Source: Gammaproteobacteria bacterium
Lineage (GTDB): Bacteria > Pseudomonadota > Gammaproteobacteria > S012-40
NCBI GenBank assembly: GCA_029883265.1
Contig: JAOUJM010000001.1
Coordinates: 10,511-74,510 of the forward strand
Length of the DNA stretch: 64,000 nt
Direction: 5' to 3'
Both the position numbers and the translations under genes were made by a program. This document shows, piece after piece, positions 703-44,814 of the stretch; the stretch's first letter is position 1; each line of letters opens with the position of its first letter. The notes beneath the pieces are model-generated. The model searched no databases. It had not been told where the DNA came from and was given only the letters and a program-made list of their open reading frames with translations.

Positions 703-958
703 TATGGACACCCCGTTTGCTTGATTTGATTGAACACCTTACAAGTTTGGCACATTATGATGCCGGATGCGGGGTGTCCATCTCAGCACCCATCTATCCT
801 CAACTAAAGATCACTTCGGCATCCATCATTTGTACTTTTCTCTCAAACACTTTCTCAATGATTCACTAAACATCGGATCAATCATCGTACTGACATTTAA
901 TTTAAAGCCTGACGCCGTTTGGACTTCGGTTTAGAAAACGAATATTAGGCGCTTTCCC
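1..958 (-). mobile_element. IS110-family element (partial), including a ~256-bp 5' leader up to the breakpoint with the truncated toxin-A duplicate
   Basis: Similarity between 945-1103 and 1545-1699 stops at ~958/959, and everything below is unrelated IS sequence. A 12-bp perfect inverted repeat (ATGGACACCCCG at 704-715 and CGGGGTGTCCAT at 770-781) sits in the leader. The end point is an inference because IS110 elements lack terminal IRs. Confidence 0.4.
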
Positions 959-1103
959 AAAGTCCATACTTTTAACATTCCCAAGCTCATCAATGATTGA
1001 CGCCATATCCTTGTTATAAGATCCAAGGATTGTCGTTGTTTTTCCCGGCTCGGTCTGAAGAATTACCCCGGATGATGCCTGATGGTTTAGCGTTTTGTCT
1101 GGA
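902..1103 (-). pseudogene. Truncated duplicate of the orphan toxin A N-terminus (VVPDKTLNHQASSGVILQTEPGKTTTILGSYNKDMASIIDELGNVKSMDFG, then divergent, stop at 904..902)
   Basis: 959-1103 is ~95% identical at the nucleotide level to 1549-1699 (tandem duplication). The reading frame leaves the toxin sequence at ~958 where the IS110-associated DNA begins. Confidence 0.6.
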
Positions 1104-1306
1104 ACAACTTAATCGGTTGCACCCAAATACCAGATCATAAACTCATAGAACCCATCCCATTTTGCAGGGATTTCGCCATTCACAAAACGATCTCTAGTTG
1201 CTAGCTCAAAGTCCCAGACCCTGCCTGTAATCTTGTCATACAAATAGCAACCTTCTCCCTCTGCAGTAGTGAAGCATATATAGTTTTCTGGTACTTTCCA
1301 GATGAC

Positions 1307-1699
1307 CTATACCCCAAATCCTGTCAGTTCCATTTTACCTGTTGATGTGTTTGGCCTGATCAAGACACCCAACCCTCGATTATCGATAACATCGAACCCC
1401 GGCTTAGTAGCCATGAGAATACTGTCACCTCTAGAGGTAGCAGAATTTAAGAATGGTACATTGACTTCGTTCCAAAATCCTTTTGGCCCCAGTGTTCTGA
1501 ACAACTCATCTGGCGCATTTAATACATTGAAGTTACCAGGCTTTGGACCAAAGTCCATACTTTTAACATTCCCAAGCTCATCAATGACTGACGCCATATC
1601 CTTGTTATAAGATCCAAGGATTGTCGTTGTTTTTCCCTGCTCGGTCTGAAGAATTACCCCGGATGATGCTTGATGGTTTAGCGTTTTGTTTGGAACTAC
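1307..1699 (-). CDS. Orphan polymorphic-toxin C-terminal domain A (startless; begins VVPNKTLNHQASSG at the conserved junction)
   Basis: Track ORF 1307..1597 continues in frame upstream to GTA GTT CCA AAC AAA at 1699. There is no ATG until codon 36. The junction motif is shared with the other modules. The function of the domain is unknown. Confidence 0.6.
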   Translation of the reverse strand, partial: VVPNKTLNHQASSGVILQTEQGKTTTILGSYNKDMASVIDELGNVKSMDFGPKPGNFNVLNAPDELFRTLGPKGFWNEVNVPFLNSATSRGDSILMATKPGFDVIDNRGLGVLIRPNTSTGKMELTGFGV

Positions 1700-1707
1700 C
1701 CACTAGT

Positions 1708-2172
1708 CTACTTTGACTCTCCCCAATTAAATCTCACATCAATCCAAGACTTACCTTCCAACACTGACAATAGCTCTAAATCACTAAACAAAGAGTTCAC
1801 GAATTTCATGAATTCCCTTAACTGTTGCTCAAATTCTCCGCTATAGCTAGAAAGACTAAAAGGGCTTTGCTGAGAAATAGTACCACGCTTCTGTACCCAT
1901 GAATCCAGACTAAAGTCTTTATCTGTCTTATCATCAATCACATAAATGACAATGTAGTCGCCCTTATCCCCGAATGCTGGATAGAATGTAAATTCCACAG
2001 AAACACCATTATCACCGCTTAGCAAATACTCGTAGCTATCTCCTGCTGGCCCCTTACTTGATACATGCTTAGTGTGTTTAAGCCTAAATCCAATACTAGT
2101 TAGACTGTCTAACATCACCAAGAATGATTCAACTTTTTTGGCTTTATCTTTTACTGGTGTGGAGTTTTTCAT
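1708..2172 (-). CDS. Putative immunity protein for toxin B
   Basis: 154-aa ORF. Its ATG overlaps the toxin B stop (ATGA at 2172). It sits immediately 3' of a CT module, the classical toxin-immunity arrangement. Confidence 0.55.
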   Translation of the reverse strand: MKNSTPVKDKAKKVESFLVMLDSLTSIGFRLKHTKHVSSKGPAGDSYEYLLSGDNGVSVEFTFYPAFGDKGDYIVIYVIDDKTDKDFSLDSWVQKRGTISQQSPFSLSSYSGEFEQQLREFMKFVNSLFSDLELLSVLEGKSWIDVRFNWGESK

Positions 2173-2609
2173 TACTTACTCCCTCCAAATATGGTCTGCT
2201 TCTCAACAGCATAAAATGGGCTAAAACCCTGATTATGAGGATTACCTATATCAATGATTGTGTACCCTTCAGATTCAATCTTCTGAGCCCAAGCTTTGTT
2301 CGCCTGATACATTTCAGTTTTAACAAGCTCAGGATTAGTCAACCTACGACCACCTTCGGTTAACCTCTCGAATTCTTTGCGTGCTGAACGAGGAATCATG
2401 TCACCATCAAAAAGTTCTACATCGTAGCCTTTCTTTTGGAGCACAGCAGCATAATCTCTTACACCATTGATTTTATTATTTCCCATCGCTCTACCAATCA
2501 CAGCGACTTTTCCGTTATCACCCTGAGCAATCCTCTGTGCTTTTAGGCCGTCTACTTCAAGCGATCTAATGCTACCTAAATCGAAGAGTTTCTTGTTTGG
2601 AACATCAAA
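2172..2609 (-). CDS. Orphan toxin C-terminal domain B (begins FDVPNKKLFDLGSIRSLEVDGLKAQRIAQGDNGKVAVIGRAMGNN...)
   Basis: Track ORF 2172..2501 extends in frame to the DVPNK junction at ~2606. A stop lies just upstream at 2612..2610. Confidence 0.6.
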   Translation of the reverse strand, partial: FDVPNKKLFDLGSIRSLEVDGLKAQRIAQGDNGKVAVIGRAMGNNKINGVRDYAAVLQKKGYDVELFDGDMIPRSARKEFERLTEGGRRLTNPELVKTEMYQANKAWAQKIESEGYTIIDIGNPHNQGFSPFYAVEKQTIFGGSK

Positions 2610-2880
2610 CTATTTCAGTTTTTATCCTTTTGACACACTCCGCTAAAGCTCTATAGCTTGGGGGTTGAACGCAATAGGCATCAGATACATTTCGTGAAAA
2701 ACCAAGAGCTTTGTCTGATATATCGTCGACATTCCCACTCTTCAGTGCTTCCAAAAGTGCTTCAGCTGTCGCCACGATATTCATCAATTCTTCCCGATCC
2801 TCGGAATTTGAAGTATTTATTGCGTCTCTTCTGTAGAGAGCTAAGGTCGTCTTGAGTAATTCAATAATGTCATTTTGCAT
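2605..2880 (-). CDS. Putative immunity protein for toxin C
   Basis: 91-aa ORF whose ATG overlaps the toxin C stop (TAATG at 2880). Confidence 0.5.
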   Translation of the reverse strand: MQNDIIELLKTTLALYRRDAINTSNSEDREELMNIVATAEALLEALKSGNVDDISDKALGFSRNVSDAYCVQPPSYRALAECVKRIKTEIV

Positions 2881-3320
2881 TAATTTAACTCCTCAATTAT
2901 TGCTCTCGGGCCTTGAGCATTGTAAGTTTGCTGTCCTCCTCCAATTAGGTTCGGCTTTGGCTGCGGCGCTACTGTACCTTGAAACACGGTTGTTCCGGGC
3001 TGATATTTTACAACAGCAGCCTTGGTTACCTGGTTGTTCGGTAGAGCCAAAATCCGTATTCGATCCTCAATTTTCTCAATCCATTGGGGAGTGGACCATC
3101 TACCTCCAAGTTTTGCTCCACCTTTTAACCCATCAAAGTATCGAAATTCTACTAATTCACTGTTGAGTGTTTTTACTCTAAAGGTCTCTAACTCAAAAGC
3201 CTTTATGAGTTGATTTCTTTCTGAGGGTAGTAAATCTTGCCTAGTTTCTCTAAGGATAGATCTAGCCTGTCTGATATTTGCCGCCGCTTCGGATCTGATC
3301 CCTGCACTGTCTGGAACAAC
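2880..3320 (-). CDS. Orphan toxin C-terminal domain C (startless, 146 aa; VVPDSAGIRSEAAANIRQARSILRE...AIIEELN)
   Basis: Not in the ORF track because it has no Met. Hand translation from GTT GTT CCA GAC at 3320 is open to TAA at 2882..2880. The junction codon directly follows the TAG stop (3323..3321) of immunity D. Confidence 0.55.
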   Translation of the reverse strand, partial: VVPDSAGIRSEAAANIRQARSILRETRQDLLPSERNQLIKAFELETFRVKTLNSELVEFRYFDGLKGGAKLGGRWSTPQWIEKIEDRIRILALPNNQVTKAAVVKYQPGTTVFQGTVAPQPKPNLIGGGQQTYNAQGPRAIIEELN

Positions 3321-3542
3321 CTATTTTATTTCTTCTACACGTACCCCGAGCTCCCTTAACCTAGAAAAAACTGCGTCAGCCAAGCTTTCATCAGAAATAG
3401 GCAAATCATACTCTCGGCCGTCCTCGTTCGTAAAACAAAGCATTTCAGAATAAGGAGTAACTTCGATATAAAACCGACCAATCTCAACACCAGTTTCAGC
3501 TATAAATTTATCAGCTAAATCTCTCATATCTTCATTCAGCAT
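3321..3542 (-). CDS. Putative immunity protein for toxin D
   Basis: 73-aa ORF. Its start overlaps the toxin D stop at 3542. Its stop is immediately followed by the module C junction. Confidence 0.5.
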   Translation of the reverse strand: MLNEDMRDLADKFIAETGVEIGRFYIEVTPYSEMLCFTNEDGREYDLPISDESLADAVFSRLRELGVRVEEIK

Positions 3543-4069
3543 TATTTTGCACCTCCTGTACGAGGTGCCTTGCCGAACCCTGGATAATAGATTGTATTGT
3601 CAGCATTGCCTGTACCCCAGAAAATTCTTGTTGGCTGCGGTTTAGCCAAAGGGTTTTGTTGCAACTGCCTAAAATATCTTGCATTAACTAAATCCATATC
3701 TTTTAGAGATGGCCATATTTGTGTAGCAGTTTCATTCGGATGAACATGACCAATCAATCTAGAATCACGCGGAACTGGGCTAGTCCAAGCATTGCCACTG
3801 TATAGCCTCTTAACCAATGTCCCATCGCCTAATCTTTCAGTGGTCAACGCAAACTCGACGTTTCTTCCATCAAGCCTGCCTAACTCATAGACATCGCCAA
3901 ACCGAATCGACCTATCCGTTAACGTTACACCTTGAGTTCCTGGTAGAGCTCCAGTTTGACGTAACTCAGCCATCGATATATGTGAACCCAGGCCCTCAGT
4001 ATGCCTAAAGCCATTAGAGTCTACTTTACCGGCCTGATGTAAAACATCGAAAGCACTGTCTGGAACAAT
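3542..4069 (-). CDS. Orphan toxin C-terminal domain D (begins IVPDSAFDVLHQAGKVDSNGF...)
   Basis: Track ORF 3542..3973 extends in frame to the IVPD junction (GTCTGGAAC at 4058-4066). Confidence 0.55.
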   Translation of the reverse strand: MVPDSAFDVLHQAGKVDSNGFRHTEGLGSHISMAELRQTGALPGTQGVTLTDRSIRFGDVYELGRLDGRNVEFALTTERLGDGTLVKRLYSGNAWTSPVPRDSRLIGHVHPNETATQIWPSLKDMDLVNARYFRQLQQNPLAKPQPTRIFWGTGNADNTIYYPGFGKAPRTGGAK

Positions 4070-4070
4070 A

Positions 4071-4361
4071 CTACTTGGCTTCTATGAAAGCTCTTTCTGC
4101 TTTTGCTATGTCCTCAGCTAACTTCGAATCAAATGGCCAACTATCTGCTATCGCATGTGTAAGGCCTAAGTTCCGCTGACTCTTTTCTGGTAAAGAACCC
4201 GAATTCAAAGTGTCTAACATCTTCTGAAGCTTCTGTTTAAAAGCATCCTTCTGTACTTTTGGTACGTTGGCTAGTTTAGGATCAGGAGAGCTAGATAGCT
4301 CTCGATCCAATGCCTCCATAGCAGATTTGACCAGCTTAGTTGCCTGCTCTATTGAACTCAT
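4071..4361 (-). CDS. Putative immunity protein for toxin E
   Basis: 96-aa ORF directly 3' of toxin E. Its stop TAG (4073..4071) abuts the module D junction. Confidence 0.5.
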   Translation of the reverse strand: MSSIEQATKLVKSAMEALDRELSSSPDPKLANVPKVQKDAFKQKLQKMLDTLNSGSLPEKSQRNLGLTHAIADSWPFDSKLAEDIAKAERAFIEAK

Positions 4362-4799
4362 TTATGGCTCCAATAAGTCGTTTGTATCTAATATATATTT
4401 CTGAATTTGACTGCCTTCAACACCTACTCCCATTGAAGATGCACGCCCTTCAAGAATTTTAGTATTAGGCCTAATTTGGAATTGCTTCATGTAGGTCATC
4501 TGATTCCATTCTGGTTTTAATGCTAGATTTTGTCTTGAAGCAGGGAAAGTTTCGAACAGGTAACGACCTTTCTCCCACGCTTTCACATTATCGTAATACC
4601 TGATACCAAATTCGCTATCTGTTGCTTGTCTCAAGTTGAGAGTCTTAATATCAAAACTCTCTAGAACTTGCTTCCTGATATCTCGTGGCACTCCAGCATT
4701 TTGTAAGAACTGCGATGCTTCCTTAACCCCTGCGTATCTTTGACCAAGTACGCCCTCTAATTCAGCCGTAGAGATGTTGTCGGCTTTGTTTGGAACTAC
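4362..4799 (-). CDS. Orphan toxin C-terminal domain E (begins VVPNKADNISTAELEGVLGQRYAGVKE...)
   Basis: Track ORF 4362..4691 extends in frame to GTA GTT CCA AAC AAA at 4799. The first junction codon shares one nucleotide with the TAG stop of immunity F (TAGTAGTTCCA). Confidence 0.55.
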   Translation of the reverse strand, partial: VVPNKADNISTAELEGVLGQRYAGVKEASQFLQNAGVPRDIRKQVLESFDIKTLNLRQATDSEFGIRYYDNVKAWEKGRYLFETFPASRQNLALKPEWNQMTYMKQFQIRPNTKILEGRASSMGVGVEGSQIQKYILDTNDLLEP

Positions 4800-5191
4800 T
4801 AATTAGGTAACTGCTTTACTAATGCATCGAAGTTCTGCTTAAGTTTTATCGCAATTTCACTGAGCTGTTCCTCGTCGCTCATAGGCGTGTCAGGAACTCC
4901 AGCTAGTAACTCCTCTATCGATAACTGCTCCCCGTCAGATATCAATGAGTTCAAATATGACCACTCGGCATTATCTAATTCTTCATTGCTTGCTTCGATA
5001 GTGCCGATCAAACAATTTACTTCCCCATCCCTTTCGGATTGATAAAAACATAACTTACAGAGTGGGGAAGAATAAAAAACTAGGGATTTATTACCACCAT
5101 CCAAATCTAAAGTTTCGTCTAGTTTAAAACCCTTGGCAGAAAAGAAATCTTCCAAGGCCCTACGCACTTTTCTCTGAAAATCGATAGTCAT
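4799..5191 (-). CDS. Putative immunity protein for toxin F
   Basis: 130-aa ORF. Its start overlaps the toxin F stop (5188..5191). Confidence 0.5.
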   Translation of the reverse strand: MTIDFQRKVRRALEDFFSAKGFKLDETLDLDGGNKSLVFYSSPLCKLCFYQSERDGEVNCLIGTIEASNEELDNAEWSYLNSLISDGEQLSIEELLAGVPDTPMSDEEQLSEIAIKLKQNFDALVKQLPN

Positions 5192-5664
5192 TGTTTGTCA
5201 GCCTTGATCCAAGAATTACCATCTCTCACATAACCATAATTCTTGGCGTTGGTTTCAAGATATTTAATCTCCATCGCCGTGAAGCTTTTTGGTCTATTAG
5301 TTAAAACTTCTCTGATTGTTTCGCCATGGAGATCAATTCGACCAACGCCACGCTCTAATTGACCATGAAGGAATTGTTCATTAACAGACCAAGCTTTTGC
5401 TCTACCTTCTGTCTTGCTTAAACCATTGGTGAGTTTTGAGAAAAAGCTGGAGTCCGTCTCAAACCATACTCCACCATTAGCCTTTGCCTCACCGATATAC
5501 CCACCATTGTCAACCCACTTGCCCAAAACTACACGATTTGAATTCTGATTAACATGGGTGGACATTTCTGCTATTTGTCGAGCATACTGATCCGCATTAG
5601 TGCCCGATGTATTGCGTAATCCATTAATCGCATCATTCAGAGAGAGCTTGTTTGGAACAAATAA
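5188..5664 (-). CDS. Orphan toxin C-terminal domain F (begins LFVPNKLSLNDAINGLRNTSGTNADQYARQIAEMSTHVNQNS...)
   Basis: Track ORF 5188..5565 extends in frame to the FVPNK junction (TTTGGAAC at 5651-5658). A stop lies just upstream. Confidence 0.55.
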   Translation of the reverse strand, partial: LFVPNKLSLNDAINGLRNTSGTNADQYARQIAEMSTHVNQNSNRVVLGKWVDNGGYIGEAKANGGVWFETDSSFFSKLTNGLSKTEGRAKAWSVNEQFLHGQLERGVGRIDLHGETIREVLTNRPKSFTAMEIKYLETNAKNYGYVRDGNSWIKADKQ

Positions 5665-5675
5665 TCAGCTAGTAG

Positions 5676-6059
5676 TTAGCTGTAGTACTTATACAAATCA
5701 GAATCTTCCCACTCTTTCTCATAAACCGCAAGAACCCTGCTTAATGCATCTCGAACTCTTAAATCTGAGCTATTCGACATTTCCTGCAGAACTGATAGCT
5801 TAATTTCGTCCCATTTTAGTTCTCTCATGCAAAACTCAAGAATTTCAATAGGCCATTTTTCTTCTTTTACTATCGTTTTAAAATTCTCGACAAGTTCTTC
5901 ACGACTATTAGAATTGGACTGTACAAACTGGAGTATTTGTAACAAATAGGGCTCAAGTTCATCCGTGCCGTCAGTTTTTTGCCATGCAGACTCTGCGGCT
6001 TGTACTAAGGTCCAGAATTCATCTGCAACTTTCATGATCATTAATCCTTCTTTACCCAT
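5676..6059 (-). CDS. Putative immunity protein for toxin G
   Basis: 127-aa ORF. The internal Met at 6041 would give the typical TGATG stop/start overlap with toxin G, so the true start may be 6041. Confidence 0.5.
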   Translation of the reverse strand: MGKEGLMIMKVADEFWTLVQAAESAWQKTDGTDELEPYLLQILQFVQSNSNSREELVENFKTIVKEEKWPIEILEFCMRELKWDEIKLSVLQEMSNSSDLRVRDALSRVLAVYEKEWEDSDLYKYYS

Positions 6060-6846
6060 TCACCGCCACGAGGAAGTGTTGAATCAAACCTCCAGACTTT
6101 CTCTATATATTTGTTCGTGGTATCAAATCCTAGTGCTTGAAACGCTTTCTCAGTTGCCTTTTGTGCAGATTGCCCATGGGGCTGATAATGACCCGAAGTG
6201 TTGTCGATATATTTCAACTCGCCATTTACAGCTTTGACCTCGCCGGCAGCAATTACAGGACGATTGTTGGCAATATCAATATGACCGCCACCAGGCGCTT
6301 TCCTGGATTGTTTACCAAGCAGCAAAGTGCCATCCTCGAGTACTACATAATTGGCTTTTTGGTTAATCTCAGTAAATCTATTCGGATTTATAAGGTTAGC
6401 CGGACCAACGCTATCTTCAGGAAATTTATTCGTGAACACTGAAGTTTTGTTGTCTGGAACAAATCCGTCTACCTTGCGTAGTTTACCCAACATAGAGGAC
6501 CCAGCCAAGGTTAAAGCAAAATCAACTGGAGATTCTGGGATCAACATGTCGAACAATTGCGCACCTACAAACGCTCCAGGACTTAAATTCTTGAATGCAA
6601 AATGCTCCATTGAGTTTTTAACTTGTGATTTACCACTCCTCATATCGCTGGTAAATTTGACAGAATTTTCATAGATATTTCTAAGTATTGGATCTTCTAT
6701 CAAGTCACTGAGCTTATTAATATCTTGAATATCAGTGTCAACTCGCCATATTTTTGCACCGTTTTCATCAGAGCCAATACTATCTGAAACATCAGCTCTA
6801 ACAGGACCATGTTCATTTTTCGCAAGCTGTAATCCGTCCAGTGATA
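6041..6846 (-). CDS. Orphan module G: ~130-aa pre-junction RHS-tail fragment (…VDFALTLAGSSMLGKLRKVDGF) plus VPDNK junction plus CT domain
   Basis: Track ORF 6041..6868. Its first 7 codons (MRSLGRL) are encoded inside the IS66 left end (6847-6868). The internal junction is GTCTGGAAC at 6452-6460. Confidence 0.5.
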
Positions 6847-6930
6847 GTAAGCGTCCCAAACTCCGCACCTTCCCAGTTCGCTTAAGATCCGTTAGCCTGT
6901 TTCTGTGTAAATTACCGGCAGGAGCAAGCC

Positions 6931-7290
6931 ATGAACGATCTCACTCAATCATCCATCAAAAACATTCGCACGGATAAACGCAGCAAGGGCCCTGAGTATT
7001 GGCAGGCGCATATAGAGGCCATGAAACAAAGTGGTCTATCAAAAACCGCGTACTGTAAACAAAACAATCTTTCGACGGTGACATTTTTTAAATGGGAAAA
7101 GAAACTCGCCAAGGCCTCGGCTTTGTTTGTACCTGCGAAGTTGGAGATGCCGGTGTCTCCAACCTCATCCAACGAGATGATTCGGATTGATCTACCCAAT
7201 GGCTGTGTGATTTCCTTGCCGGTATCGTGCTCACCCGCAGAGGGTTTACGTTGGATTGAGACCTTGATGCGTGTTTCATGCTCAAGCTAG
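6931..7290 (+). CDS. tnpA: IS66-family TnpA (orf1, HTH)
   Basis: 119 aa. It is the first of three overlapping same-strand ORFs after a GTAAGCG-type IR. Its paralogue at 18817 is about 85% identical. Confidence 0.7.
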   Translation: MNDLTQSSIKNIRTDKRSKGPEYWQAHIEAMKQSGLSKTAYCKQNNLSTVTFFKWEKKLAKASALFVPAKLEMPVSPTSSNEMIRIDLPNGCVISLPVSCSPAEGLRWIETLMRVSCSS

Positions 7291-7634
7291 ATCAAGAGAT
7301 TCAGATTTACTTCGCGATTAACCCGATCAACATGCTGAAAAGCTTTGACGGTTTAGCAGCCTTGGTGGTGGATGTGATTCAACAAAATCCCCTATCAGGG
7401 CATTTGTTTGTGTTTCGTAATCGAGCCGCTGATAAAATTAAACTACTGATCTGGGATCGCAATGGCTTTACCATCTACTATAAAAGACTCGAACGCGGTC
7501 GCTTTAAGTTTCCTGAGTTGGATGACTGCACTCATCTTTCGATCACTCGTCAAGAACTGGATTTATTGTTTGATGGTATTGACTTCACTCAACTCAAACG
7601 CCTACCCACACTTCACTATAAATCAGTGATTTGA
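7278..7634 (+). CDS. tnpB: IS66-family TnpB (orf2)
   Basis: 118 aa with the motifs IYFAINPINMLKSFDGL…LFVFRNRAADKIKLLIWDRNGF…YKRLE characteristic of IS66 Orf2. It overlaps the tnpA end. Confidence 0.8.
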   Translation: MLKLDQEIQIYFAINPINMLKSFDGLAALVVDVIQQNPLSGHLFVFRNRAADKIKLLIWDRNGFTIYYKRLERGRFKFPELDDCTHLSITRQELDLLFDGIDFTQLKRLPTLHYKSVI

Positions 7635-7646
7635 TCCGTCTGATAC

Positions 7647-9185: not shown

Positions 9186-9193
9186 ACCGGCTT

Positions 9194-11596: not shown

Positions 11597-12021
11597 CTTT
11601 TTATAGCAGTTCCTTTAACAATTATATCCTCACCTACTTTCTCAATTGAATCTATAGAGTTAATTACATAGTTTGCAACGTCATTATCTTCATCTAAAGC
11701 AATATCAAGAATATCGAACTTATGGTAAGCATAAAGATATTCAAATAAAGATGCGCCTTCGATATCTATGAATTCAGATAATAACGGATAATCAGTAGCC
11801 CCCGGATATGGGGGCTCAAAATCACCAGCAATCTCGTCATCTTCTCTAAGTTCTTCAACACCATCATTGTACAAAGGTGTGAGCTTTTCTATAAAAACTC
11901 CTTTAGCAAATTTAATTTCGTAGCGGAAAGTCTCAAAGCCATCCCCTTTTCCGAAGCTAAATTGGCTAAACGTTAACGCATTGGAATCAATGTTCTTACC
12001 ATCTACACTATATAAAATCAT
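11593..12021 (-). CDS. Putative immunity protein for toxin J
   Basis: 142-aa ORF immediately 3' of toxin J. Confidence 0.5.
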   Translation of the reverse strand: MILYSVDGKNIDSNALTFSQFSFGKGDGFETFRYEIKFAKGVFIEKLTPLYNDGVEELREDDEIAGDFEPPYPGATDYPLLSEFIDIEGASLFEYLYAYHKFDILDIALDEDNDVANYVINSIDSIEKVGEDIIVKGTAIKR

Positions 12022-12023
12022 CT

Positions 12024-12539
12024 TTAACTTCCCGGAGGTAGAATAATAATTTTGCCATCAGGCGTTATCGTAATTGATCCAGATGGAATATATGGTTGAC
12101 CAGCTTTCAAGTCTCCACCAGCTCTAGTCCCAGATCTTTGGAAAAATTGCTCTGGCGTTGTCATTGTTTCTATAGTTTTTGTACTTTTACCAGGAACAAT
12201 AGTAAGTTCTTCCATTTTTAAGAAATTTGGATTATCAGCTGCGGCTTTATTGACGTTTTTAATTATTCTTTGAGCTTGCTTTTCAGATAAGCTACCGAAA
12301 CCGACATCAATATCACTACCTTTGCCGAAATCGCCTCTTATTCGGCTACCACCAAATACTACTGTTGAATTTCTTTTTAGCCCCTGCTCTAAAATTAACG
12401 TAGCTTGCTCAGTTGTCAAATCAGGTACATGCTTTGATAAAAATGCAGACTGTTCTGCAATGCCTGATGTGGTTAATGTAGTTTGCTCAGGATATGCATT
12501 AAATACAGATTTATCTGTCCAGCGTGTGTTTGGAACTAC
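12024..12539 (-). CDS. Orphan toxin J with nucleotidyltransferase-fold motif (begins VVPNTRWTDKSVFNAYPEQ...)
   Basis: Track ORF 12024..12419 extends to the junction at 12539. VVFGGSRIRGDFGKGSDIDVGF fits the G-S…D-x-D signature of pol-beta-superfamily nucleotidyltransferases. Confidence 0.5.
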   Translation of the reverse strand, partial: VVPNTRWTDKSVFNAYPEQTTLTTSGIAEQSAFLSKHVPDLTTEQATLILEQGLKRNSTVVFGGSRIRGDFGKGSDIDVGFGSLSEKQAQRIIKNVNKAAADNPNFLKMEELTIVPGKSTKTIETMTTPEQFFQRSGTRAGGDLKAGQPYIPSGSITITPDGKIIILPPGS

Positions 12540-12985
12540 TTATCTGTATAATACCATTCTAGAAAATCGAAAAAACTTTTGTATATCGGTTGCAACATCC
12601 TCTTGGAGAGTTTTTCCTCTTCTCCCCAGCTCACATCAAATACTTCATCGCTAACTTTGCTATAAAAATAGCTCCCCTCACCTTCAATAGACGAAATACG
12701 TAAATAATCTTCCATTCCTGGCAGTGAGCTATATTCACCTGATTCAGCATCTTCAATAATTTTTTCCAAAGTGCTAATTTCGCTACCGTTACCCACTACT
12801 GGGATAGCCACCAAAGTATAAAAATCAATAAAGGCAGAGTCAGCATTTCTTATTCCCAACTCTTTCTCAAAATAATTCTTGTCATCTTGCGTAACTATAA
12901 ATTTTCCATCTTGTGCAGAAAAAACGCCGTCATAACACCACTTCAGGTTAGACTTATAGAAGTTTGAGACAATGTCCGGTAACAA
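12536..12985 (-). CDS. Putative immunity protein for toxin K
   Basis: 149-aa ORF. Its TAG stop overlaps the first junction codon of toxin J (GTAG). Confidence 0.5.
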   Translation of the reverse strand: MLPDIVSNFYKSNLKWCYDGVFSAQDGKFIVTQDDKNYFEKELGIRNADSAFIDFYTLVAIPVVGNGSEISTLEKIIEDAESGEYSSLPGMEDYLRISSIEGEGSYFYSKVSDEVFDVSWGEEEKLSKRMLQPIYKSFFDFLEWYYTDK

Positions 12986-12986
12986 T

Positions 12987-13544
12987 TTAACGACCTCCGC
13001 TATTCGTTATCTCGATTAGTCGCTGTTGCCAATAGATTTTTCTGTCAATATCAAAAGCTGATCTATCAACAGGATATGTTGGATGTTGACTTTGAGTTGG
13101 CCCAGATCCCGCGCCATTCATTTCACGCCCTCTATTGGTTTTGTATGGGTGCAATGCCTCACCTCCTTGGCCTGTTTTTGACCGATGCGTTAAATCACTT
13201 AGTTCAAACAGAGGACCGTTCGCATTTTGGCGACTAAGATGCAATTCAATGCGAGACTGTACACCATTCTTCAGAACATAAGGAGCATTTCCCACTTCCA
13301 ATAGCTCCCTATTTGTAGTTGTATAGGTCCTTTTGGTTTTTGGATTGGTAATTTTTACCACTAAATCGGGATCAATTTCTTGTTGAAAGACTTTGTATTT
13401 AATCCCTGTCCCATTTACTGGGGCTACCCACACAGCTTCGGTTTTAAAATAACTAGGATTCTTGGCGTTTTTCGCCCGTAGCGCAACAAAGTCTATCTTA
13501 TTCGGTTCTACTGCTCCCTCAAGTTCATATTTGTTTGGAACTAC
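12987..13544 (-). CDS. Orphan toxin C-terminal domain K (begins VVPNKYELEGAVEPNKIDFVALRAKNAKNPSYFKTEAVWVAPVNG...)
   Basis: Track ORF 12987..13433 extends in frame to the junction at 13544. Confidence 0.55.
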   Translation of the reverse strand, partial: VVPNKYELEGAVEPNKIDFVALRAKNAKNPSYFKTEAVWVAPVNGTGIKYKVFQQEIDPDLVVKITNPKTKRTYTTTNRELLEVGNAPYVLKNGVQSRIELHLSRQNANGPLFELSDLTHRSKTGQGGEALHPYKTNRGREMNGAGSGPTQSQHPTYPVDRSAFDIDRKIYWQQRLIEITNSGGR

Positions 13545-14254
13545 TTATTAAAAAGCGCCTTCCTCAAGACTTTCTGAGCTTCTGCCTCTTCACCTGTAGA
13601 CTCTTTAAAGCATTCATCCTGTACATCAAGTTTAAGTACGCTTCCTAAATCAGAGACACATTCCATAGCAAAATTATCTGCCCCTATATCCCTCAAAAGA
13701 TCCTTACTCATCCACATAGTAGAACCAACACATTCAATATACCCATTCTTCAGATCCCATCGCCCTGGGTTCCTAGAAATATCAATCACTTCACTTTCAA
13801 GAGGAAATGGCAAACCATTGCTCTTCTTCGGTAGATTCGAATGATCTCGTCCTTCGGACTCATAGTAAGCAATATCTTCCATGTTTTGCCAACGGTCATA
13901 TTCTCCATCATATAACCTAGCCTGAACAAAAAACGGGTCATTTACTATTTGAGTAACCCATTTTTCTGCATACTCTTTAGACGCAGCTAGATTCTTTATA
14001 TCTAACCTGGAGAAATCCAGATCTGCTATATATGAAAACTCAATACTCCCCCCATCAAGCTCAATAAAGAAGCTATCGGCCTTATTCTTAAGAAGAGTTT
14101 CCGAAACATCAGTAAAACCTAGTTCTTTGCCAGTGAATCCATCCGCCACTTTTTTATCGGCATATATTTGTTTAAATTCTTCGGTAAGCTTATTCCATAA
14201 CTTATAAGCTTCAGCGTAAGCTTTACCTCTAAGAACAATTTCAATTTGTACCAT
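13541..14254 (-). CDS. Putative immunity protein for toxin L
   Basis: 237-aa ORF. Its start lies 6 nt after the toxin L stop. Confidence 0.5.
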   Translation of the reverse strand: MVQIEIVLRGKAYAEAYKLWNKLTEEFKQIYADKKVADGFTGKELGFTDVSETLLKNKADSFFIELDGGSIEFSYIADLDFSRLDIKNLAASKEYAEKWVTQIVNDPFFVQARLYDGEYDRWQNMEDIAYYESEGRDHSNLPKKSNGLPFPLESEVIDISRNPGRWDLKNGYIECVGSTMWMSKDLLRDIGADNFAMECVSDLGSVLKLDVQDECFKESTGEEAEAQKVLRKALFNK

Positions 14255-14259
14255 GATAA

Positions 14260-14676
14260 TTATTCACCAAACTCTTTAATAATTACTGGAATATTTCGCT
14301 GCTTGCCATACTCAATTAAATGCTTCGCATCATTAAAACCACCTGGCTGAACCCTAATATCCAATATTTTCGTTGCCGGAACGTCGGAAACGGTAATGGT
14401 AGTCTTTTGCAAGTGGTCGATATGAGATCTCATATCATACTCCCAAGATTTACCACCAGTATTAACCGTTTTCAGACTAACAACATTGTTTCCTTGTTGG
14501 AAATCAATCGAAGGGAAGTTATTAGACTTAAATGGTTCGCCAGTTTTTGGGTTAATAGAGTTATCGGAACGAGCCCAATCTTTATAATCTGTTTCTGTAA
14601 GGTGTGACTCAATCTGTCTACCACGAACCTTCGGATCTAGATCCCAAACTTCTCTGCCTAACTTGTTTGGAACAAC
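14260..14676 (-). CDS. Orphan toxin C-terminal domain L (startless, 138 aa; VVPNKLGREVWDLDPKVRGRQIESHLTETDYKDW…MRSHIDHLQK…EFGE)
   Basis: Not in the ORF track because it lacks Met. Hand translation is open from GTT GTT CCA AAC AAG at 14676-14662 to TAA at 14262..14260. The TAA stop of the upstream ORF (14679..14677) is directly adjacent. Confidence 0.55.
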   Translation of the reverse strand, partial: VVPNKLGREVWDLDPKVRGRQIESHLTETDYKDWARSDNSINPKTGEPFKSNNFPSIDFQQGNNVVSLKTVNTGGKSWEYDMRSHIDHLQKTTITVSDVPATKILDIRVQPGGFNDAKHLIEYGKQRNIPVIIKEFGE

Positions 14677-15075
14677 TTATCGCACAGTTACACTCCAAGA
14701 AAAGTCTGGATATCCATCATTTTCTGTGACTCCTAAGACCAGCTTTTTGGCACCTATCACGCACCTAATTTCGCCTAACTCTTCACTTATCTCATTAGGA
14801 TGTAGCAGATCAACGAACTGCCTATAAAATGGCTCGGTATTTTTCGACTTCAAAATTAGAGTTAGCGCGTCTTTTAAACCAGGACTATTACTCTCCACAA
14901 CAGCATTTGGAGTATCAACAGACAGCATAACTGGATTCATGCTTGAAGACAGAACACGTCCTATAAACAACTCACACAAAGATAACGCGCTTTCTGACGC
15001 CTCATTCAATTTGGGCGGAAGAATTATATCGACGGTTTTTTTGTTTTCACCAGTATTCATAGCACCTTCTTCCAA
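14677..15075 (-). CDS. Second small ORF of module M (accessory or immunity protein)
   Basis: 132 aa. It overlaps the 3' end of the zinc-ribbon ORF and ends immediately before the module L junction. Confidence 0.4.
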   Translation of the reverse strand: MEEGAMNTGENKKTVDIILPPKLNEASESALSLCELFIGRVLSSSMNPVMLSVDTPNAVVESNSPGLKDALTLILKSKNTEPFYRQFVDLLHPNEISEELGEIRCVIGAKKLVLGVTENDGYPDFSWSVTVR

Positions 15076-15293
15076 CCCCCTCGAAAAGCTTGGTCAGGAA
15101 ACTCTAATACCCATAATTGTCCACAGTGTTTGCACTTGTATTGAATTTTTATAAATGGCCCTGAATGATCTATTTGTCCGTAACTTTTCAACTCGCCCAT
15201 TTCAACCATCTGGGCAATCCGCTGCCGAAATTCAACGAATTCCTTCTCAGAATTAAACCGTTCTTGGCACAACTCGCAGACTACACAACTCAT
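15057..15293 (-). CDS. Putative immunity protein for toxin M (CxxC…CxxC zinc ribbon)
   Basis: 78 aa with CVVCELC … CKHCGQ. Its start overlaps the toxin M stop. Confidence 0.45.
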   Translation of the reverse strand: MSCVVCELCQERFNSEKEFVEFRQRIAQMVEMGELKSYGQIDHSGPFIKIQYKCKHCGQLWVLEFPDQAFRGGWKKVL

Positions 15294-15793
15294 GGCTTCA
15301 ACCTAAAGATGTGGGTATCCTCTATGGGTACTGGATCAAGCAAGAATTGAGTCCATCCTCCCTGTCCAGCTTCTGGATAGGAATTTGTATAAACCTCCCA
15401 CCCTCGTGTTCCTTCATTTCCAAATGGCCTTGCGACACTAAATCCGCGGACCTTATCTACGGGGATCGCGACACCATAAGTTGGTTCTCCCCACTCAGGC
15501 TTGATTTGAGCACCGCGAGCAATAGCACCACTGGAGTGCGAAAATTCTGTTGTTGAGTAGCCACGAACACTTCCATAACGCAGAGACTTATCAAGACCGT
15601 CTTCAGATAGATATCTAAAAATAAAATCCTGACTTTCTATAGACTCGGAGAGACGGCGTTCGTAGTTCAACTGCGAAAGCTTGTCAATCCTACCTGCACG
15701 CTCTTGCGGGCTTAGGTGACCATACTTTTCTTTCAGTGCTAATGAGCTTGCTCTCGCATCCAGAACAACCTGCGGTGCATTGTCTGGAACAAA
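15290..15793 (-). CDS. Orphan toxin C-terminal domain M (begins FVPDNAPQVVLDARASSLALKEKYGHLSPQE...)
   Basis: Track ORF 15290..15670 extends in frame to TTT GTT CCA GAC at 15793. It is in frame with, and directly after, the TGA stop of immunity N. Confidence 0.55.
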   Translation of the reverse strand, partial: FVPDNAPQVVLDARASSLALKEKYGHLSPQERAGRIDKLSQLNYERRLSESIESQDFIFRYLSEDGLDKSLRYGSVRGYSTTEFSHSSGAIARGAQIKPEWGEPTYGVAIPVDKVRGFSVARPFGNEGTRGWEVYTNSYPEAGQGGWTQFLLDPVPIEDTHIFRLKP

Positions 15794-16264
15794 TCACAAC
15801 AAGCCAAATTTTTCACCCTTACCAATTACTTCAATCGTAACTGAGTAGTCGGACTTTTTTATAGAAACATGTTCTATCAAACCATCAGTTAAATTCTCTA
15901 CACAAAAATCAATTTTTTCCGATTCACTTTTTGGCAAGAAAACCTTATCAGAATACTTTGCCAAATAAGGTAACTTTTTAACTATTGGAATCCTCAATAA
16001 CGGTGTGAGTTCTCTAAATACATCCAGGAATTTGTCGCTATCCAGAGAAGGAGATAAAATTTTCAAAGCTCTTTGAAAACTTCCGATATTTTCGTTTGCC
16101 ACAAAATCATCAAAACTTTTACCGGAAACTATAGCAACCTTTCTAGTGGGTAGGCTTTTACCTTGCCAAATAGTAAGAAACGCTTTAGAAAACTCAATCG
16201 TTCTTAATTTCTCTGGCTCTTCTTTTAAAAAATCTTTTGCCAAATTAATGCTCATATGCGTCAC
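15794..16264 (-). CDS. Putative immunity protein for toxin N
   Basis: 156-aa ORF 3' of toxin N. Confidence 0.5.
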   Translation of the reverse strand: MTHMSINLAKDFLKEEPEKLRTIEFSKAFLTIWQGKSLPTRKVAIVSGKSFDDFVANENIGSFQRALKILSPSLDSDKFLDVFRELTPLLRIPIVKKLPYLAKYSDKVFLPKSESEKIDFCVENLTDGLIEHVSIKKSDYSVTIEVIGKGEKFGLL

Positions 16265-16267
16265 CTT

Positions 16268-16792
16268 CTATTTAAAACCATAGATGGTTTTTATTCTATC
16301 CCATGCATCAAACCGTGTAGCCAGACTACCATTTTCTCCTAATAAAACCCTATTTTCATATATGGTTCCTAGTTCTGGTTTTCCTATGCTGTCTGCAAAC
16401 TTTTGTTCAGCTAGGAATGCTCTCGCCTCAAGATAAGACTTATTAGACATATTTTTCACACCGGAAATATCATCGAAAAAGTGTTGCCCTTCATGTGCAG
16501 TAATTGTAGCAGCTCGTTTTAACCCAGTATTTCCGGTATAAATTAGATCTTGGTTTAACTCAATTTGATTTGTACCAGGAAAATACCGACCATTAAGCCC
16601 ATCTAATTTCGAATAAACAATCTCAACTTTTCCATTTTGAATAGCAGTTGCCAATTTAACTGATCTAGCATCCCCAGTTTCCAATATACGGCTAATCATT
16701 TGAGGAGAAGGCGCTTGATTTCCGTTCGCTAACCTAACTCCATCACCCCCAAACATTACTTTACTTTCTAACTGAAGGTTGTCTGGAACAAC
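16268..16792 (-). CDS. Orphan toxin N with HExxH zinc-metallopeptidase motif (begins VVPDNLQLESKVMFGGDGV...)
   Basis: Track ORF 16268..16756 extends to the junction at 16792. It contains TITAHEGQHFFDD (HExxH). Confidence 0.5.
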   Translation of the reverse strand, partial: VVPDNLQLESKVMFGGDGVRLANGNQAPSPQMISRILETGDARSVKLATAIQNGKVEIVYSKLDGLNGRYFPGTNQIELNQDLIYTGNTGLKRAATITAHEGQHFFDDISGVKNMSNKSYLEARAFLAEQKFADSIGKPELGTIYENRVLLGENGSLATRFDAWDRIKTIYGFK

Positions 16793-16814
16793 CTAATCCC
16801 AAACATCAGTCAAG

Positions 16815-17096
16815 CTAACAAACAGACTCTAGATCCTTGATTAAAACCATAACCTGATCCTGATTACATTCAACAAAGAAACTGTCGATAGTAGAAGTTG
16901 TTTGCAAAGTAATAGATTGCTTAGCTTTAAGCTTTTCTGCTAGTTCTTTTGTTACATCTTCACGATTAGAATTAGTTATATGTACCGAACACACATCCTT
17001 ACCATAAACAACCATAGCTTCGTAGGAATCTTTTAAAGACCACCATTCTCGACGATCTAAAACTCCAGCTGCCTGTTCTCTTATTAAATTAGCCAT
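16815..17096 (-). CDS. Putative immunity protein for toxin O
   Basis: 93-aa ORF. Its start overlaps the toxin O stop (17096). Confidence 0.5.
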   Translation of the reverse strand: MANLIREQAAGVLDRREWWSLKDSYEAMVVYGKDVCSVHITNSNREDVTKELAEKLKAKQSITLQTTSTIDSFFVECNQDQVMVLIKDLESVC

Positions 17097-17563
17097 CAGT
17101 CTACCCTAATATTATCTGTAGAGTTGAATATGCTGCGCTGCCCAGCACTATTCAAGATCAAACTTTGACTTTGTTGCTGCCTAAATATATCCAATACCAT
17201 ACGATCCCCGGGCCAGCCTGATGCATCTAGTTTAATGTCTGTCGTTCCGGGATGAGTATGACCAGACCACTTATAGCCTTTATCAGCCAAACCTTGTAAT
17301 TCAGATTTGGTTAATGGAACACCTCCAGCATTCCCTCTAAACACTAGGCGTTGACTACCATTAGTAAACAAAGCAAACTCATCACCTGTCTTTGCCGTAA
17401 GCGCTGCCAGATCAGTCACGCTTATTTGCTTCTTATGAAGAGTTGTACTTGATAATGTATCTGGTAATTGACCCAAAACCCGTTGTTGACGCTTTGACAA
17501 ATCGCCAAAGCCCCAAGCTATTTCGCTAGGAGAACTAGCTGAAATCGTCTTGTTTGGAACTAC
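17096..17563 (-). CDS. Orphan toxin C-terminal domain O (begins VVPNKTISASSPSEIAWGFGDLSKRQQRVLGQLPDT...)
   Basis: Track ORF 17096..17500 extends in frame to the junction at 17563. The TAG stop of immunity P overlaps the junction (GTAG). Confidence 0.55.
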   Translation of the reverse strand, partial: VVPNKTISASSPSEIAWGFGDLSKRQQRVLGQLPDTLSSTTLHKKQISVTDLAALTAKTGDEFALFTNGSQRLVFRGNAGGVPLTKSELQGLADKGYKWSGHTHPGTTDIKLDASGWPGDRMVLDIFRQQQSQSLILNSAGQRSIFNSTDNIRVD

Positions 17564-17853
17564 ATACTAAATCCGCTTTTCCAATCACTTTTAGTAGTAG
17601 GATCCGACCTCATTTCTTCTAAGAAGAACTCACACGCTGAGCTTTCATCCTCAAAACACTCTTTGCCAGTCTGCAATCCTCTCTCACTATAATAAACACA
17701 CCACCGGCCATTTTCACAACGCAAGCACAACGCCTCGTCCTTTTGTTCCTCCTCCAATGAGTAAGAGCTAGGATTAAATTTCTCCTCACTCAACTTTCTT
17801 TGAAGATCATCTTTATTCATGCAATATCCCTCATCATTTTGTAACGCGCTCAA
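17560..17853 (-). CDS. Putative immunity protein for toxin P
   Basis: 97-aa Cys-rich ORF that overlaps the toxin P 3' end. Confidence 0.45.
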   Translation of the reverse strand: MSALQNDEGYCMNKDDLQRKLSEEKFNPSSYSLEEEQKDEALCLRCENGRWCVYYSERGLQTGKECFEDESSACEFFLEEMRSDPTTKSDWKSGFSM

Positions 17854-18732
17854 GATATTGGTTTGCTGGATTCAAGAGCTCCTTTACTGATTTTGGCAAC
17901 TCGTATTGGGTACCATATCCAGGCATATCAAAAGCAGGTGCAGCTGGGCCAATGCGTGTATCCGGAATTTCTTGGAGAACGCGATACACATTCAAGTTAC
18001 TCACATCTGTGCCGGGACGAAGGGATAATGTTTCTGGAGTTGTTCCTAAGGGGCTTGCGAATGTACCGCGTTCATTCCCGAGACGGCCTATTAGCTGTCC
18101 AGGTTGCAATGAGCCAATCTCATCAGCACCATAAACAAAACCTTTATTCTTCGGCCAATCCCAGAACACATTTTCTGCACCATACTTGCTGGTCAAATAT
18201 TCATTCCATTGAGCGCCTGAAACTGCTCCAGTCTTGTTTGGAACACGATCACCGCCTTTATATTTTAATATACCGCCAGCAATAAAACCATATGTTAAAC
18301 CACCCAATAGCTCTGGATTCTCCCTGTTCTGCCACAAGTTCCTCAGACTTTGGACCTTTCTATCTGAAAATTCGGTACTAGTAGGAAAACCCAGCTTATC
18401 TAACTTAAAGAAACTATTAAAATTTAAAGAGAGGTCATTAAACTCTTCCCAGATATTTTTTCCTATATCTAGCAAAACCTCTAAAGTCTCATTTGTCAAT
18501 CTGTCACCAAGATCTTTATGAGCATTTAGGGTTCCTTTACTGAATCTCAATGCGTAATCACCCACATCTCCGTTTTGTTTCTGCTGGTTACTCCGGCCCA
18601 AAACAACCCCATTAATCTGATCAAGTTGCTGCATTGCCTCTTCTAAATTTTGTTGACTCTCAGAAACCTCTCCAACCCCCTCCTCCTTACTATGTCCCGC
18701 CAACGTCAATGGTAAATCCACTTCCTGGCCAT
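17834..18732 (-). CDS. Module P: displaced original C-terminus of the giant rhs gene (EVDLPLTLAGHSKEEG…KYKGGDR-VPNKT-GAVSGAQWNEY…LERVTK)
   Basis: Track ORF 17834..18817. The first 28 codons are IS66-encoded (18817-18733). Immediately outside the IS left end the frame continues from the TSD (HGQ) into rhs-like sequence. That sequence joins seamlessly to …TYNGYGQ of the giant ORF once the IS66 element and one TSD copy are removed. Confidence 0.65.
18725..18732 (+). repeat. 8-bp target-site duplication CTGGCCAT (left copy) of IS66 element 2
   Basis: Identical octamer at 22840-22847, directly outside the other end. IS66-family elements make 8-bp TSDs. Confidence 0.85.
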
Positions 18733-44809: not shown

Positions 44810-44814
44810 AAACC

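Follow-up and report, generated by a model that had tools for sequence, protein, structure and literature searches.

The window analyzed here is a stretch of 64,000 nucleotides (nt) from a Gammaproteobacteria bacterium (contig JAOUJM010000001.1, positions 10,511 to 74,510), taken from a metagenome-assembled genome whose NCBI proteins are numbered MDH52284xx. Its minus strand carries a giant YD-repeat/LysM toxin gene, the present open reading frame (ORF) of which runs from 41001 to 21847, and, 3′ of this gene, a co-oriented array of toxin-tip and immunity modules, each headed by a short junction. A sequence-only reading of this DNA had described the array as sixteen orphan modules downstream of an rhs gene, reading in the same direction as that gene and extending from 902 to 18732. 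Both end coordinates hold to the base (the last fragment has its stop at 902, and an IS66 left inverted repeat begins directly after 18732), and the common orientation holds for the giant gene and all junctions. The number sixteen is correct for distinct tips, but the junctions number 17, since the fragment at 1105 is a copy of its neighbor. The giant gene and the array are composed as follows, with each module named for the position of the G of its GTT; one further junction, at 10506, adjoins the cargo end of an insertion element described below.

22840 to 41001, minus strand: native body of the giant YD-repeat/LysM toxin gene, the first 6054 codons of the present 6384-amino-acid (aa) ORF.
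17560 to 18732, minus strand: module 18244, the native tail, with a pre-toxin region (18732-18245), the junction GTTCCAAACA (18244-18235), a TNT NAD-glycohydrolase tip up to a stop at 17834, and an immunity gene (17820-17560).
16815 to 17563, minus strand: module 17560, VVPNK, a JAMM/MPN-fold tip (stop 17096), and a 93-aa immunity protein.
15794 to 16792, minus strand: module 16789, VVPDN, a tip with HEGQH (HExxH-like), and an immunity protein of ≈153 aa.
14677 to 15793, minus strand: module 15790, FVPDN, an ATG-less tip, and ORFs of 78 aa (CxxC pairs) and ≈127 aa.
13541 to 14676, minus strand: module 14673, VVPNK, a tip, and a 237-aa immunity protein.
12536 to 13544, minus strand: module 13541, VVPNK, an LHH (HNH/EndoVII) nuclease tip, and a 149-aa immunity protein.
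11593 to 12539, minus strand: module 12536, VVPNT, a nucleotidyltransferase-fold tip, and a 142-aa immunity protein.
10506 to 11596, minus strand: module 11593, VVPNN, a tip, and a 220-aa immunity protein, with no family match.
5676 to 6846, minus strand: module 6460, ≈130 open pre-toxin codons from the IS66-2 left end, FVPDNK, a tip, and a 127-aa immunity protein.
4799 to 5661, minus strand: module 5658, FVPNK, a tip, and a 130-aa immunity protein (ATGA overlap).
4071 to 4799, minus strand: module 4796, VVPNK, a tip, and a 96-aa immunity protein.
3321 to 4069, minus strand: module 4066, IVPDS, a tip (GHVHP motif), and a 73-aa immunity protein.
2605 to 3320, minus strand: module 3317, VVPDS, an ATG-less tip, and a 91-aa immunity protein.
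1708 to 2606, minus strand: module 2603, DVPNK, a tip, and a 154-aa immunity protein.
1109 to 1699, minus strand: module 1696, decayed, VVPNK, a tip, and a 65-aa start-less immunity remnant.
902 to 1108, minus strand: fragment 1105, a 152-nt copy (1108-957) that is 96.7% identical to the 5′ end of module 1696.
1 to 956, minus strand: IS110-family element closing the array, with a transposase ORF (738 to 1; DEDD_Tnp_IS110, E 1e-17) that runs off the window.

The sequence GTTCCARACA occurs in 16 exact copies, on the minus strand only and between 1096 and 18244, compared with an expectation of 0.38 and a maximum of 3 in dinucleotide shuffles; GTTCCAR is found just once on the opposite strand within the array. 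The 17th junction, at 10506, reads GTAGTTCCA followed directly by GTAAGCG, so that the motif is broken by an IS66 end. In a stop-to-stop translation, the toxin-sized ORFs mostly start no more than 7 codons after a stop and with (V/F/I/D)VP(N/D), and translation from the junctions places an in-frame stop 1 to 7 codons 5′ of GTT in 15 of 17 cases, as expected from the earlier description of toxin ORFs that lack a start codon and begin at the junction. The first in-frame ATG lies +11 to +140 codons from the junction, and two tip ORFs contain no ATG at all. Long open sequence 5′ of the junction is confined to modules 18244 (≈165 non-IS codons) and 6460 (≈130), each of which adjoins an IS66 left end. 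Fifteen tips are uninterrupted from junction to stop over 129 to 184 codons, and a small ORF comes after each tip, the toxin stop and immunity start overlapping as TGATG, ATGA, TAATG, or TAAATG, in keeping with the tight coupling previously noted. In 15 modules the immunity gene is intact and has a normal start; the partner in module 1696 is truncated. At 12 of 16 boundaries the distance from the end of the immunity stop to GTTCC is −1 to +4 nt, and five of the stops are a TAG within GTAGTTCC.

By BLASTP, the tips are mutually dissimilar, as had been claimed, apart from fragment 1105, which copies the 5′ end of module 1696; one weak profile match connects the tips of modules 17560 and 4066 (hhalign E 0.0045). 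The partners are dissimilar as well, apart from a C-terminal match in which the 65-aa remnant of module 1696 aligns with residues 92 to 145 of the 149-aa immunity protein of module 13541. Eleven metagenome contigs from at least four independent assemblies are 99.97 to 100% identical to the window and colinear with it, and the array is therefore no assembly artifact. Neither promoter-like sites (23 vs 43 in shuffles) nor terminator-like sites (15 vs 12 in shuffles) are enriched in the array.

An arrangement of this kind might also consist of free-standing toxin/immunity or toxin–antitoxin pairs that are translated from internal starts and unrelated to the giant gene. Gene callers do place internal starts in most tips, such as the 162-aa ORF at 16268-16756 and the 234-aa ORF at 9745-10449 in the NCBI metagenome-assembled genome; however, a conserved in-frame junction with a stop just upstream precedes every tip, two tips are devoid of ATG, promoters are not enriched, and the homologs listed (see below) mostly carry the domain at or near the C terminus of larger, often giant secreted proteins. 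We regard free-standing pairs as very improbable.

Support for a toxin assignment from outside the window was obtained for 7 of the 16 distinct tips, those of modules 18244, 17560, 15790, 14673, 13541, 12536, and 6460. The 18244 tip matches Pfam TNT (E 2e-20) and is 69% identical to the tip of the giant protein P0007 of Agarivorans, the 13541 tip matches Pfam LHH (E 1e-8), and the 12536 tip matches NTP_transf_2 (E 7e-5) with a weak hint of MntA. The 15790 tip is 57 to 59% identical to the C termini of the Rhs proteins P0023 and P0024, and the 14673 tip, the AF2 model of which is poor (pLDDT 51), is 41 to 72% identical to the C termini of CdiA-like two-partner-secretion and Rhs proteins (P0019-P0029). 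An exhaustive search with the 6460 tip retrieved 320 homologs, 181 of them at E ≤1e-10; among the best matches listed, the domain lies mostly at or near the C terminus of proteins of up to 5171 aa, and in most of the homologs listed, homology begins at the junction. The 16789 tip gave a weak SprT hint only (E 0.02), and PDB sequence searches with three tips and two tip-family profiles were empty. For two modules, toxin and immunity genes are found side by side in other genomes as well; the 18244 immunity protein is 72% identical to the product of the gene following that of Agarivorans P0007, and a second conserved partner is 29% identical (E 7e-20) to the product of the gene following that of P0009. 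Separately, three tip families that are widespread at polymorphic-toxin C termini lack a Pfam or NCBIfam model: a JAMM-fold family (17099-17563; 12 homologs), a family with an IDFQ...VSLKT motif (13541-14676; nine homologs, in CdiA and Rhs proteins), and a family with a GGGHID...AAGE...SGHY motif (6044-6463; the 320 homologs above).

From these data we consider it probable that the array serves the giant YD/LysM gene as a reservoir of toxin-tip/immunity cassettes that lack promoters and start codons. A cassette comprises a ≈13-nt junction site, a toxin domain of 130 to 185 aa, and a translationally coupled immunity gene, the stop of which usually touches the next site, and the TNT NADase cassette is the giant gene's own original tail. 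We infer that the tips are silent and that the immunity genes are expressed: the latter could protect against neighbors with the same tips, and the former would stay silent until a rearrangement at the junction site joined one of them to the giant body, by the C-terminal displacement and re-recruitment described for orphans of Rhs and CdiA loci. A second route of tip replacement is visible at this locus, where an IS66 element with a lipase tip and an ankyrin immunity gene has entered the pre-toxin linker; its lipase became the in-frame end of the giant gene, and the TNT tail was left as the first orphan. The toxicity of the tips and their neutralization by the adjacent protein are predicted from sequence. 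The silent-cassette organization put forward by the sequence-only reading agrees with the co-orientation, the lack of starts, the junction shared with the native gene, the seven supported tips, and the two recurring pairs; toxin homology, the complete absence of which would have spoken against it, extends to those seven tips, with nine left unsupported.

Several findings weigh against this reading. Pfam and NCBIfam gave no match for the nine remaining tips or for the majority of immunity genes, which are recognized by architecture alone, absent family matches being common among polymorphic toxins. No integrase or recombinase gene is found in the 64-kb window, and the shared site of 10 to 13 nt is too short for efficient RecA recombination. 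Recombinant variants, envisaged earlier as a check on the array, were sought, and none is present among the 11 related metagenome contigs, all of which are colinear. The expressed allele now lacks the site (the present giant ORF contains no VP(N/D)K), the IS66 insertion lying ≈165 codons upstream of it, and re-recruitment would therefore first need loss of the IS or a larger deletion. Several tips have an internal ATG, GTG, or TTG near their start (at +11 and +19 codons in two) and thus might be made as free proteins. Finally, decay is evident in the distal modules, 1696 and 1105.

A graveyard of displaced tips that is kept for its immunity genes, with toxin parts that decay and are never re-used, would accommodate some of these points, namely the decayed distal modules, the expressed gene without a site, and the lack of recombinants, as well as the contrast between intact, normally started immunity genes in 15 modules and start-less tips; the same idea has been discussed for cdiI orphans (Poole et al. 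2011, PMC3150448). Fifteen tips without internal stops would, however, be unexpected for neutral relics in DNA of 36 to 44% GC, and the junction site is intact in all 16 copies. We think it rather unlikely that the array is an immunity store only.

For a reservoir of re-usable cassettes, the properties of the junction as DNA are of particular interest. Upon alignment the junction is conserved, as had been claimed, over ≈13 nt, and this conservation exceeds what the peptide needs. Two main haplotypes, GTAGTTCCAAACA and GTTGTTCCAGACA, encode VVPN or VVPD, and conservation fades within 3 to 6 nt upstream of GTTCC and 1 to 2 nt downstream. All 16 sites use GTT-CCA-AAC/GAC, AAC (28%) and GAC (26%) being minor codons, and the codon choice given the peptide has a P of ≈9e-24; the base after RAC is always A, though the residue is K, N, T, or S. 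Upstream of the site there is no conservation, even among three full-length contexts, and the orphans lack a conserved upstream coding stretch for recombination, with only the 10- to 13-nt junction kept. The junction of the restored native gene (see below) is GGDR-VPNK-TNT, and the same kind of junction heads the orphan cassettes. In Agarivorans P0007, the body/tip junction is SVVPDS-TNT with the same DNA, GTAGTTCCAGACA; the DNA at the body/tip boundary of this full-length gene is GTAGTTCCAGACAGT, and a nearby VPD there uses other codons. Two other family members, P0009 and P0018, lack the motif. The 1105/1696 duplication begins exactly at the site, as does the boundary of the second IS66 element. 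Trimmed cassette ends, the exact start of the duplication, and the codon bias are unexpected from illegitimate 3′ crossovers and suggest joining at the site itself. One candidate origin for the junction, a degenerate IS66 inverted repeat (GTA[AGC]GTCCAAAAC vs GTAGTTCCAAAC), was rejected, 10% of shuffles reaching the same local score.

Recombination at the site, which we infer together with its enzymology, would in its most specific form be the work of a dedicated cassette system, in which the ≈13 nt are a site-specific recombination site, the recombinase is encoded elsewhere, and the array grows by precise insertions in the manner of an integron or shufflon. Such a system would explain conservation at the DNA level down to the invariant A, the lack of conservation upstream, immunity stops that abut GTTCC at most boundaries, and the duplication and IS66 boundaries exactly at the site; furthermore, the Agarivorans locus has the identical 13-mer and, immediately 5′ of its giant gene, a 109-aa Phage_int_SAM_5 ORF (L012 9491-9820). 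However, besides the lack of a recombinase in the window, the site has no dyad symmetry or palindrome, and an attC test revealed no inverse core near the cassette ends. All sites are direct repeats, so that simple recombination would only delete, the 11 contigs show no variants in order, and the same codons could stem from descent via repeated passage through one junction. We judge a dedicated system of this kind unlikely.

The locus contains two IS66 elements, both of which carry toxin cargo between tnpC and the right inverted repeat.

18733 to 22839: IS66-1 with cargo, 4107 bp, with left inverted repeat (IRL) at 18733-18755 and right inverted repeat (IRR) at 22817-22839.
18817 to 21044, plus strand: IS66-1 tnpA, tnpB, and tnpC, with IS66 Pfam domains.
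21095 to 21823, minus strand: IS66-1 cargo immunity gene, with ankyrin repeats (Ank_2, Ank, Ank_4, E ≈1e-11) and a lipoprotein-type signal.
21847 to 22839, minus strand: IS66-1 cargo toxin tip, a Tle-like alpha/beta-hydrolase lipase with GHSLGG, the last 330 codons of the giant ORF.
18725 to 18732, with a second copy at 22840-22847: perfect 8-bp target-site duplication CTGGCCAT.
6847 to 10500: IS66-2 with cargo, 3654 bp, with IRL at 6847-6869 and IRR at 10478-10500.
6931 to 9185, plus strand: IS66-2 tnpA, tnpB, and tnpC.
9194 to 10500, minus strand: IS66-2 cargo, a signal-peptide immunity gene (9194-9748) and a toxin tip (9745-10500).

Members of the IS66 family carry tnpA, tnpB, and a DDE transposase gene tnpC between inverted repeats that start with GTAAGCG, and they generate an 8-bp target duplication. 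The elements described here conform to this pattern, with TnpB_IS66, LZ_Tnp_IS66, zf-IS66, and DDE_Tnp_IS66 domains on tnp genes that are 36 to 41% identical to IS66 transposases by tblastn, with repeats starting GTAAGCG, and with the 8-bp duplication in the case of element 1; the tnp parts of the two elements are 87% identical. Unlike usual IS66 elements, they harbor 1.3 to 1.8 kb of cargo between tnpC and the right repeat, consisting of a start-less toxin tip that is open through the repeat plus an immunity gene, and in-frame insertion replaces the C-terminal toxin of the target. There is no other inverted repeat between tnpC and the cargo. The two ends of IS66-1, the IRL GTAAGCGTCCTAAACTCCGCACC and the IRR (reverse complement GTAAGCGTCCAAAACTCTGCCCC), agree at 19 of 23 positions. 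In silico removal of IS66-1 and one copy of the duplication yields a 6350-aa ORF (...NGYGQ/EVDLPL...GGDRVPNK-TNT), the empty site reading TATGGCCAG joined to GAAGTGGATTTACC. Because of the 8-bp duplication and the restored ORF, module 18244 is identified as the native tail, displaced by transposition and not by recombination; the displaced tail of the sequence-only reading is thus confirmed, for this one event. It is the target duplication, not sequence similarity, that ties module 18244 to the gene body, as the pre-toxin regions of modules 18244 and 6460 show no similarity to the gene body or to each other beyond IS66-derived codons.

The frame of the IS66-1 lipase tip is open through the IRR, which encodes VSVQNSAPGK. 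The tip matches PDB 7ubz_B, a type VI secretion system (T6SS) lipase effector (E 5e-11), with weak matches to Lipase_3 and Thioesterase and a precomputed Phospholipase-like match. In Enterobacter cloacae, a Tle phospholipase is neutralized by the ankyrin-repeat lipoprotein Tli (10.1101/2023.03.28.534661; PDB 7ubz). The IS66-1 lipase is similarly followed by an ankyrin protein with a lipoprotein signal but, unlike Tle, is the C-terminal tip of a YD/LysM giant, attached via a transposon end, rather than a free T6SS effector. The 23-nt segment GTAAGCGTCCAAAACTCTGCCCC (VSVQNSAP) is common to the giant ORF and the 10506 module and is an inverted copy of the IS66 left ends, GTAAGCGTCC[T/C]AAACTCCGCACC, at 18733 and 6847; the region has no further repeat-like sequence. 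IS66-2 is the IS cargo module that had already been recognized, and indeed carries a toxin tip, with an ES...GLFQ motif that is lytic-transglycosylase-like by eye, and an immunity gene. Its IRR is identical to that of IS66-1, in the same frame, and adjoins GTAGTTCCA (10501-10509) to encode VVP/VSVQNSAP. The flanks of IS66-2, CAGTGATA and TGGAACTA, differ, leaving no target duplication, and the element has therefore been rearranged since insertion.

A metagenome scan identified three related contigs that carry the repeat. L022 (1-99) contains the same IRR and lipase cargo end next to an unrelated flank, on the side of a CRISPR array, from which it follows that the element moves as a unit. L018 (6074-11680) contains an IS66 element that is 68% identical and has its own, larger cargo, which encodes an S26 peptidase, a partner with weak SUKH similarity, and, in the same frame, a toxin-like ORF interrupted by one stop after 33 codons; in L023, the left end is found in yet another context. 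The cargo unit is mobile, its cargo is varied, and some copies are not fused to toxin genes. We also observed that L018 and L022 (metagenome Ga0224506) have their elements at a common site next to a type I-F CRISPR array, with an identical 51-nt flank and different spacers, and that the right repeat is identical to that of the window at 22 to 23 of 23 positions though the tnp parts are 68% identical, the left repeat of L018 being degenerate. This pattern suggests either an exchange of cargo or right ends between elements or a preferred site. A TnpC alignment scan of GTDB representative genomes retrieved nothing, and the inverted-repeat pattern gave three chance matches only, this IS lineage being absent from these genomes; plasmids contain relatives at ≤41% identity only.

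Reservoir and transposon might represent two tip-swapping devices at one locus, a site-specific ≈13-nt junction serving an integron-like store and an IS66 lineage serving as a vehicle for toxin tips; we put this forward tentatively. Cassettes would then be cut exactly between the immunity stop and the site, a possibility that we hold with the same reserve. Likewise, the IRR could conceivably double as an in-frame linker (VSVQNSAP), able to install a tip and its immunity gene in any secreted toxin gene, though we would not yet favor this idea. Bearing on the vehicle are the two different cargos in the window that are open through the repeat, a third, in L018, that is in frame with one stop, and right repeats that agree at 22 to 23 of 23 positions between elements whose tnp genes are only 68% identical; copies are also located in non-toxin DNA next to a CRISPR array, and a single in-frame insertion by accident has a 1-in-6 chance.

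The giant protein is itself not a canonical Rhs protein, since it lacks both an RHS-associated core and a C-terminal DPxGL. It contains YD repeats (YD_repeat_2x, E 1e-14 to 1e-16; precomputed RHS_repeat and TEN_YD-shell matches) and several LysM domains, and the tip is preceded by a LysM domain, a hydrophobic Gly-rich region, and a linker. No RHS-associated core is present in the last 1500 residues; DPxG[LI] occurs at residues 2657 and 3331 only and nowhere near the C terminus; and no PAAR, VgrG, T6SS, or TcB/TcC genes are found among the ORFs of the window. The assignment of the locus as Rhs-type thus stands in regard to the YD repeats and the orphan organization but fails in regard to the core and DPxGL, with only 10 to 13 nt kept. 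The homologs P0007, P0009, and P0018 have an N terminus and LysM region in common with the giant protein. The loci of P0018 and P0009 each contain one immunity gene and no array, and the Agarivorans contig ends 550 bp past its giant gene.

Several features of the surroundings were recorded in addition. The IS110 transposase gene is complete on contig L008 (337 aa), and at position 957 the IS110 element truncates the last cassette fragment within its tip, not at the junction site; the array may have extended past this element. Ahead of the giant gene, from 47101 to 64000, lie genes for flagellar-type export, the basal body, and the hook (FlgF, G, A, H, I, B, and C; FliE, F, H, I, and J; FlgD and E; FliP), along with two TPR protein genes and one for a sigma factor; no flagellin is seen in the window. 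At the locus of P0018 (3703 aa; L013 1-21112), in a distant organism, the order FliH-FliI-...-FlgD-FlgE-...-FliP-sigma-TPR-TPR-giant gene is kept, with identities to the window of 48% for FliI, 53% for FliP, 36% for FlgE, and 35% for the Rhs N terminus. This order may point to a flagellar-type type III system as the exporter of the giants; no flagellar-type gene context surrounds the homologs in Agarivorans and Sphingomonas, and a literature search on flagellar-type export of such giants surfaced nothing. In Agarivorans, the giant gene lies near dnaA, yidC, and mnmE (L012), and an ORF 3′ of it (L012 20001-20164), transposase-like by eye, runs off the contig. A stretch of ≈5.5 kb (41186-47100) separates the TPR gene from the giant gene of the window and contains genes for an omptin-family protease (42370-43845), a DUF6973 protein (44815-46089), and a lipoprotein. 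It looks like an insertion, since the final ≈110 codons of the TPR gene (3′ end of 47101-48189) are repeated almost identically at its boundary (41186-41545). Finally, a fifth IS66-like end, GTAACCGTGCAAAACTCCCC (VTVQNSPP), with four mismatches, lies 5′ of the giant gene at 41947-41966 on the minus strand and may be what is left of a further cargo element there.

Orphan arrays that arise by C-terminal displacement are known from Rhs loci (Steele et al. 2017, PMC5727410, which cites Jackson et al. 2009 and Koskiniemi et al. 2014), and in contact-dependent growth inhibition (CDI) loci the orphans have no translation initiation signals, keep the demarcating motif (VENN), and have intact immunity genes (PMC3150448). 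The array described here resembles Rhs orphan arrays in having a full-length YD-repeat gene with its immunity gene, then co-oriented, 5′-truncated tip/immunity pairs, and in having tips common to other delivery systems. It differs from them in its parent, a 6.3-kaa (kiloamino-acid) LysM/YD protein with neither an RHS core nor DPxGL demarcation, in a 10- to 13-nt junction in place of a core fragment, with immunity stops abutting the next junction, and in the lack of T6SS, PAAR, or VgrG context in the window. Classical orphans retain a conserved upstream coding stretch. As in CDI arrays, the tips are start-less, a demarcating motif is kept (VVP(N/D) here, VENN there), the immunity genes are mostly intact, and some tips are homologous to CdiA tips; the two kinds of array differ in their length, their junction motif, and their delivery protein, the parent here falling outside the two-partner-secretion proteins. 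The description of the array as unusually long is fair, with 17 junctions compared with the 11 orphan pairs that were called extensive in E. coli EC869 (Poole et al. 2011, PMC3150448), though large Rhs orphan collections are known (PMC5727410).

Integrons and the R64 shufflon place promoter-less units behind one expression point and use a short conserved site, which in the shufflon lies at the boundary of constant and variable regions. The array similarly stacks promoter-less units delimited by a short conserved DNA site but, unlike these systems, has no integrase, attC-like palindrome, or inverted sites. Literature searches on toxin-immunity cargo of IS66 elements or transposons and on IS66 passenger genes surfaced no description of an element such as IS66-1, nor was a transposon route of arsenal change found in the literature searched.

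The usual view of orphan toxin arrays is that recombination in long conserved regions builds them and allows their re-use. The 10 to 13 nt of shared sequence, its conservation at the DNA level, and cassette ends trimmed to the immunity stop do not fit this long-homology picture and point to a more precise joining. IS66-1 is a directly documented case in which a transposon has replaced, in frame, the C-terminal toxin of a giant protein and brought the matching immunity gene with it. The locus as a whole provides about 16 toxin/immunity pairs, mostly of unannotated families, together with a non-canonical delivery protein.

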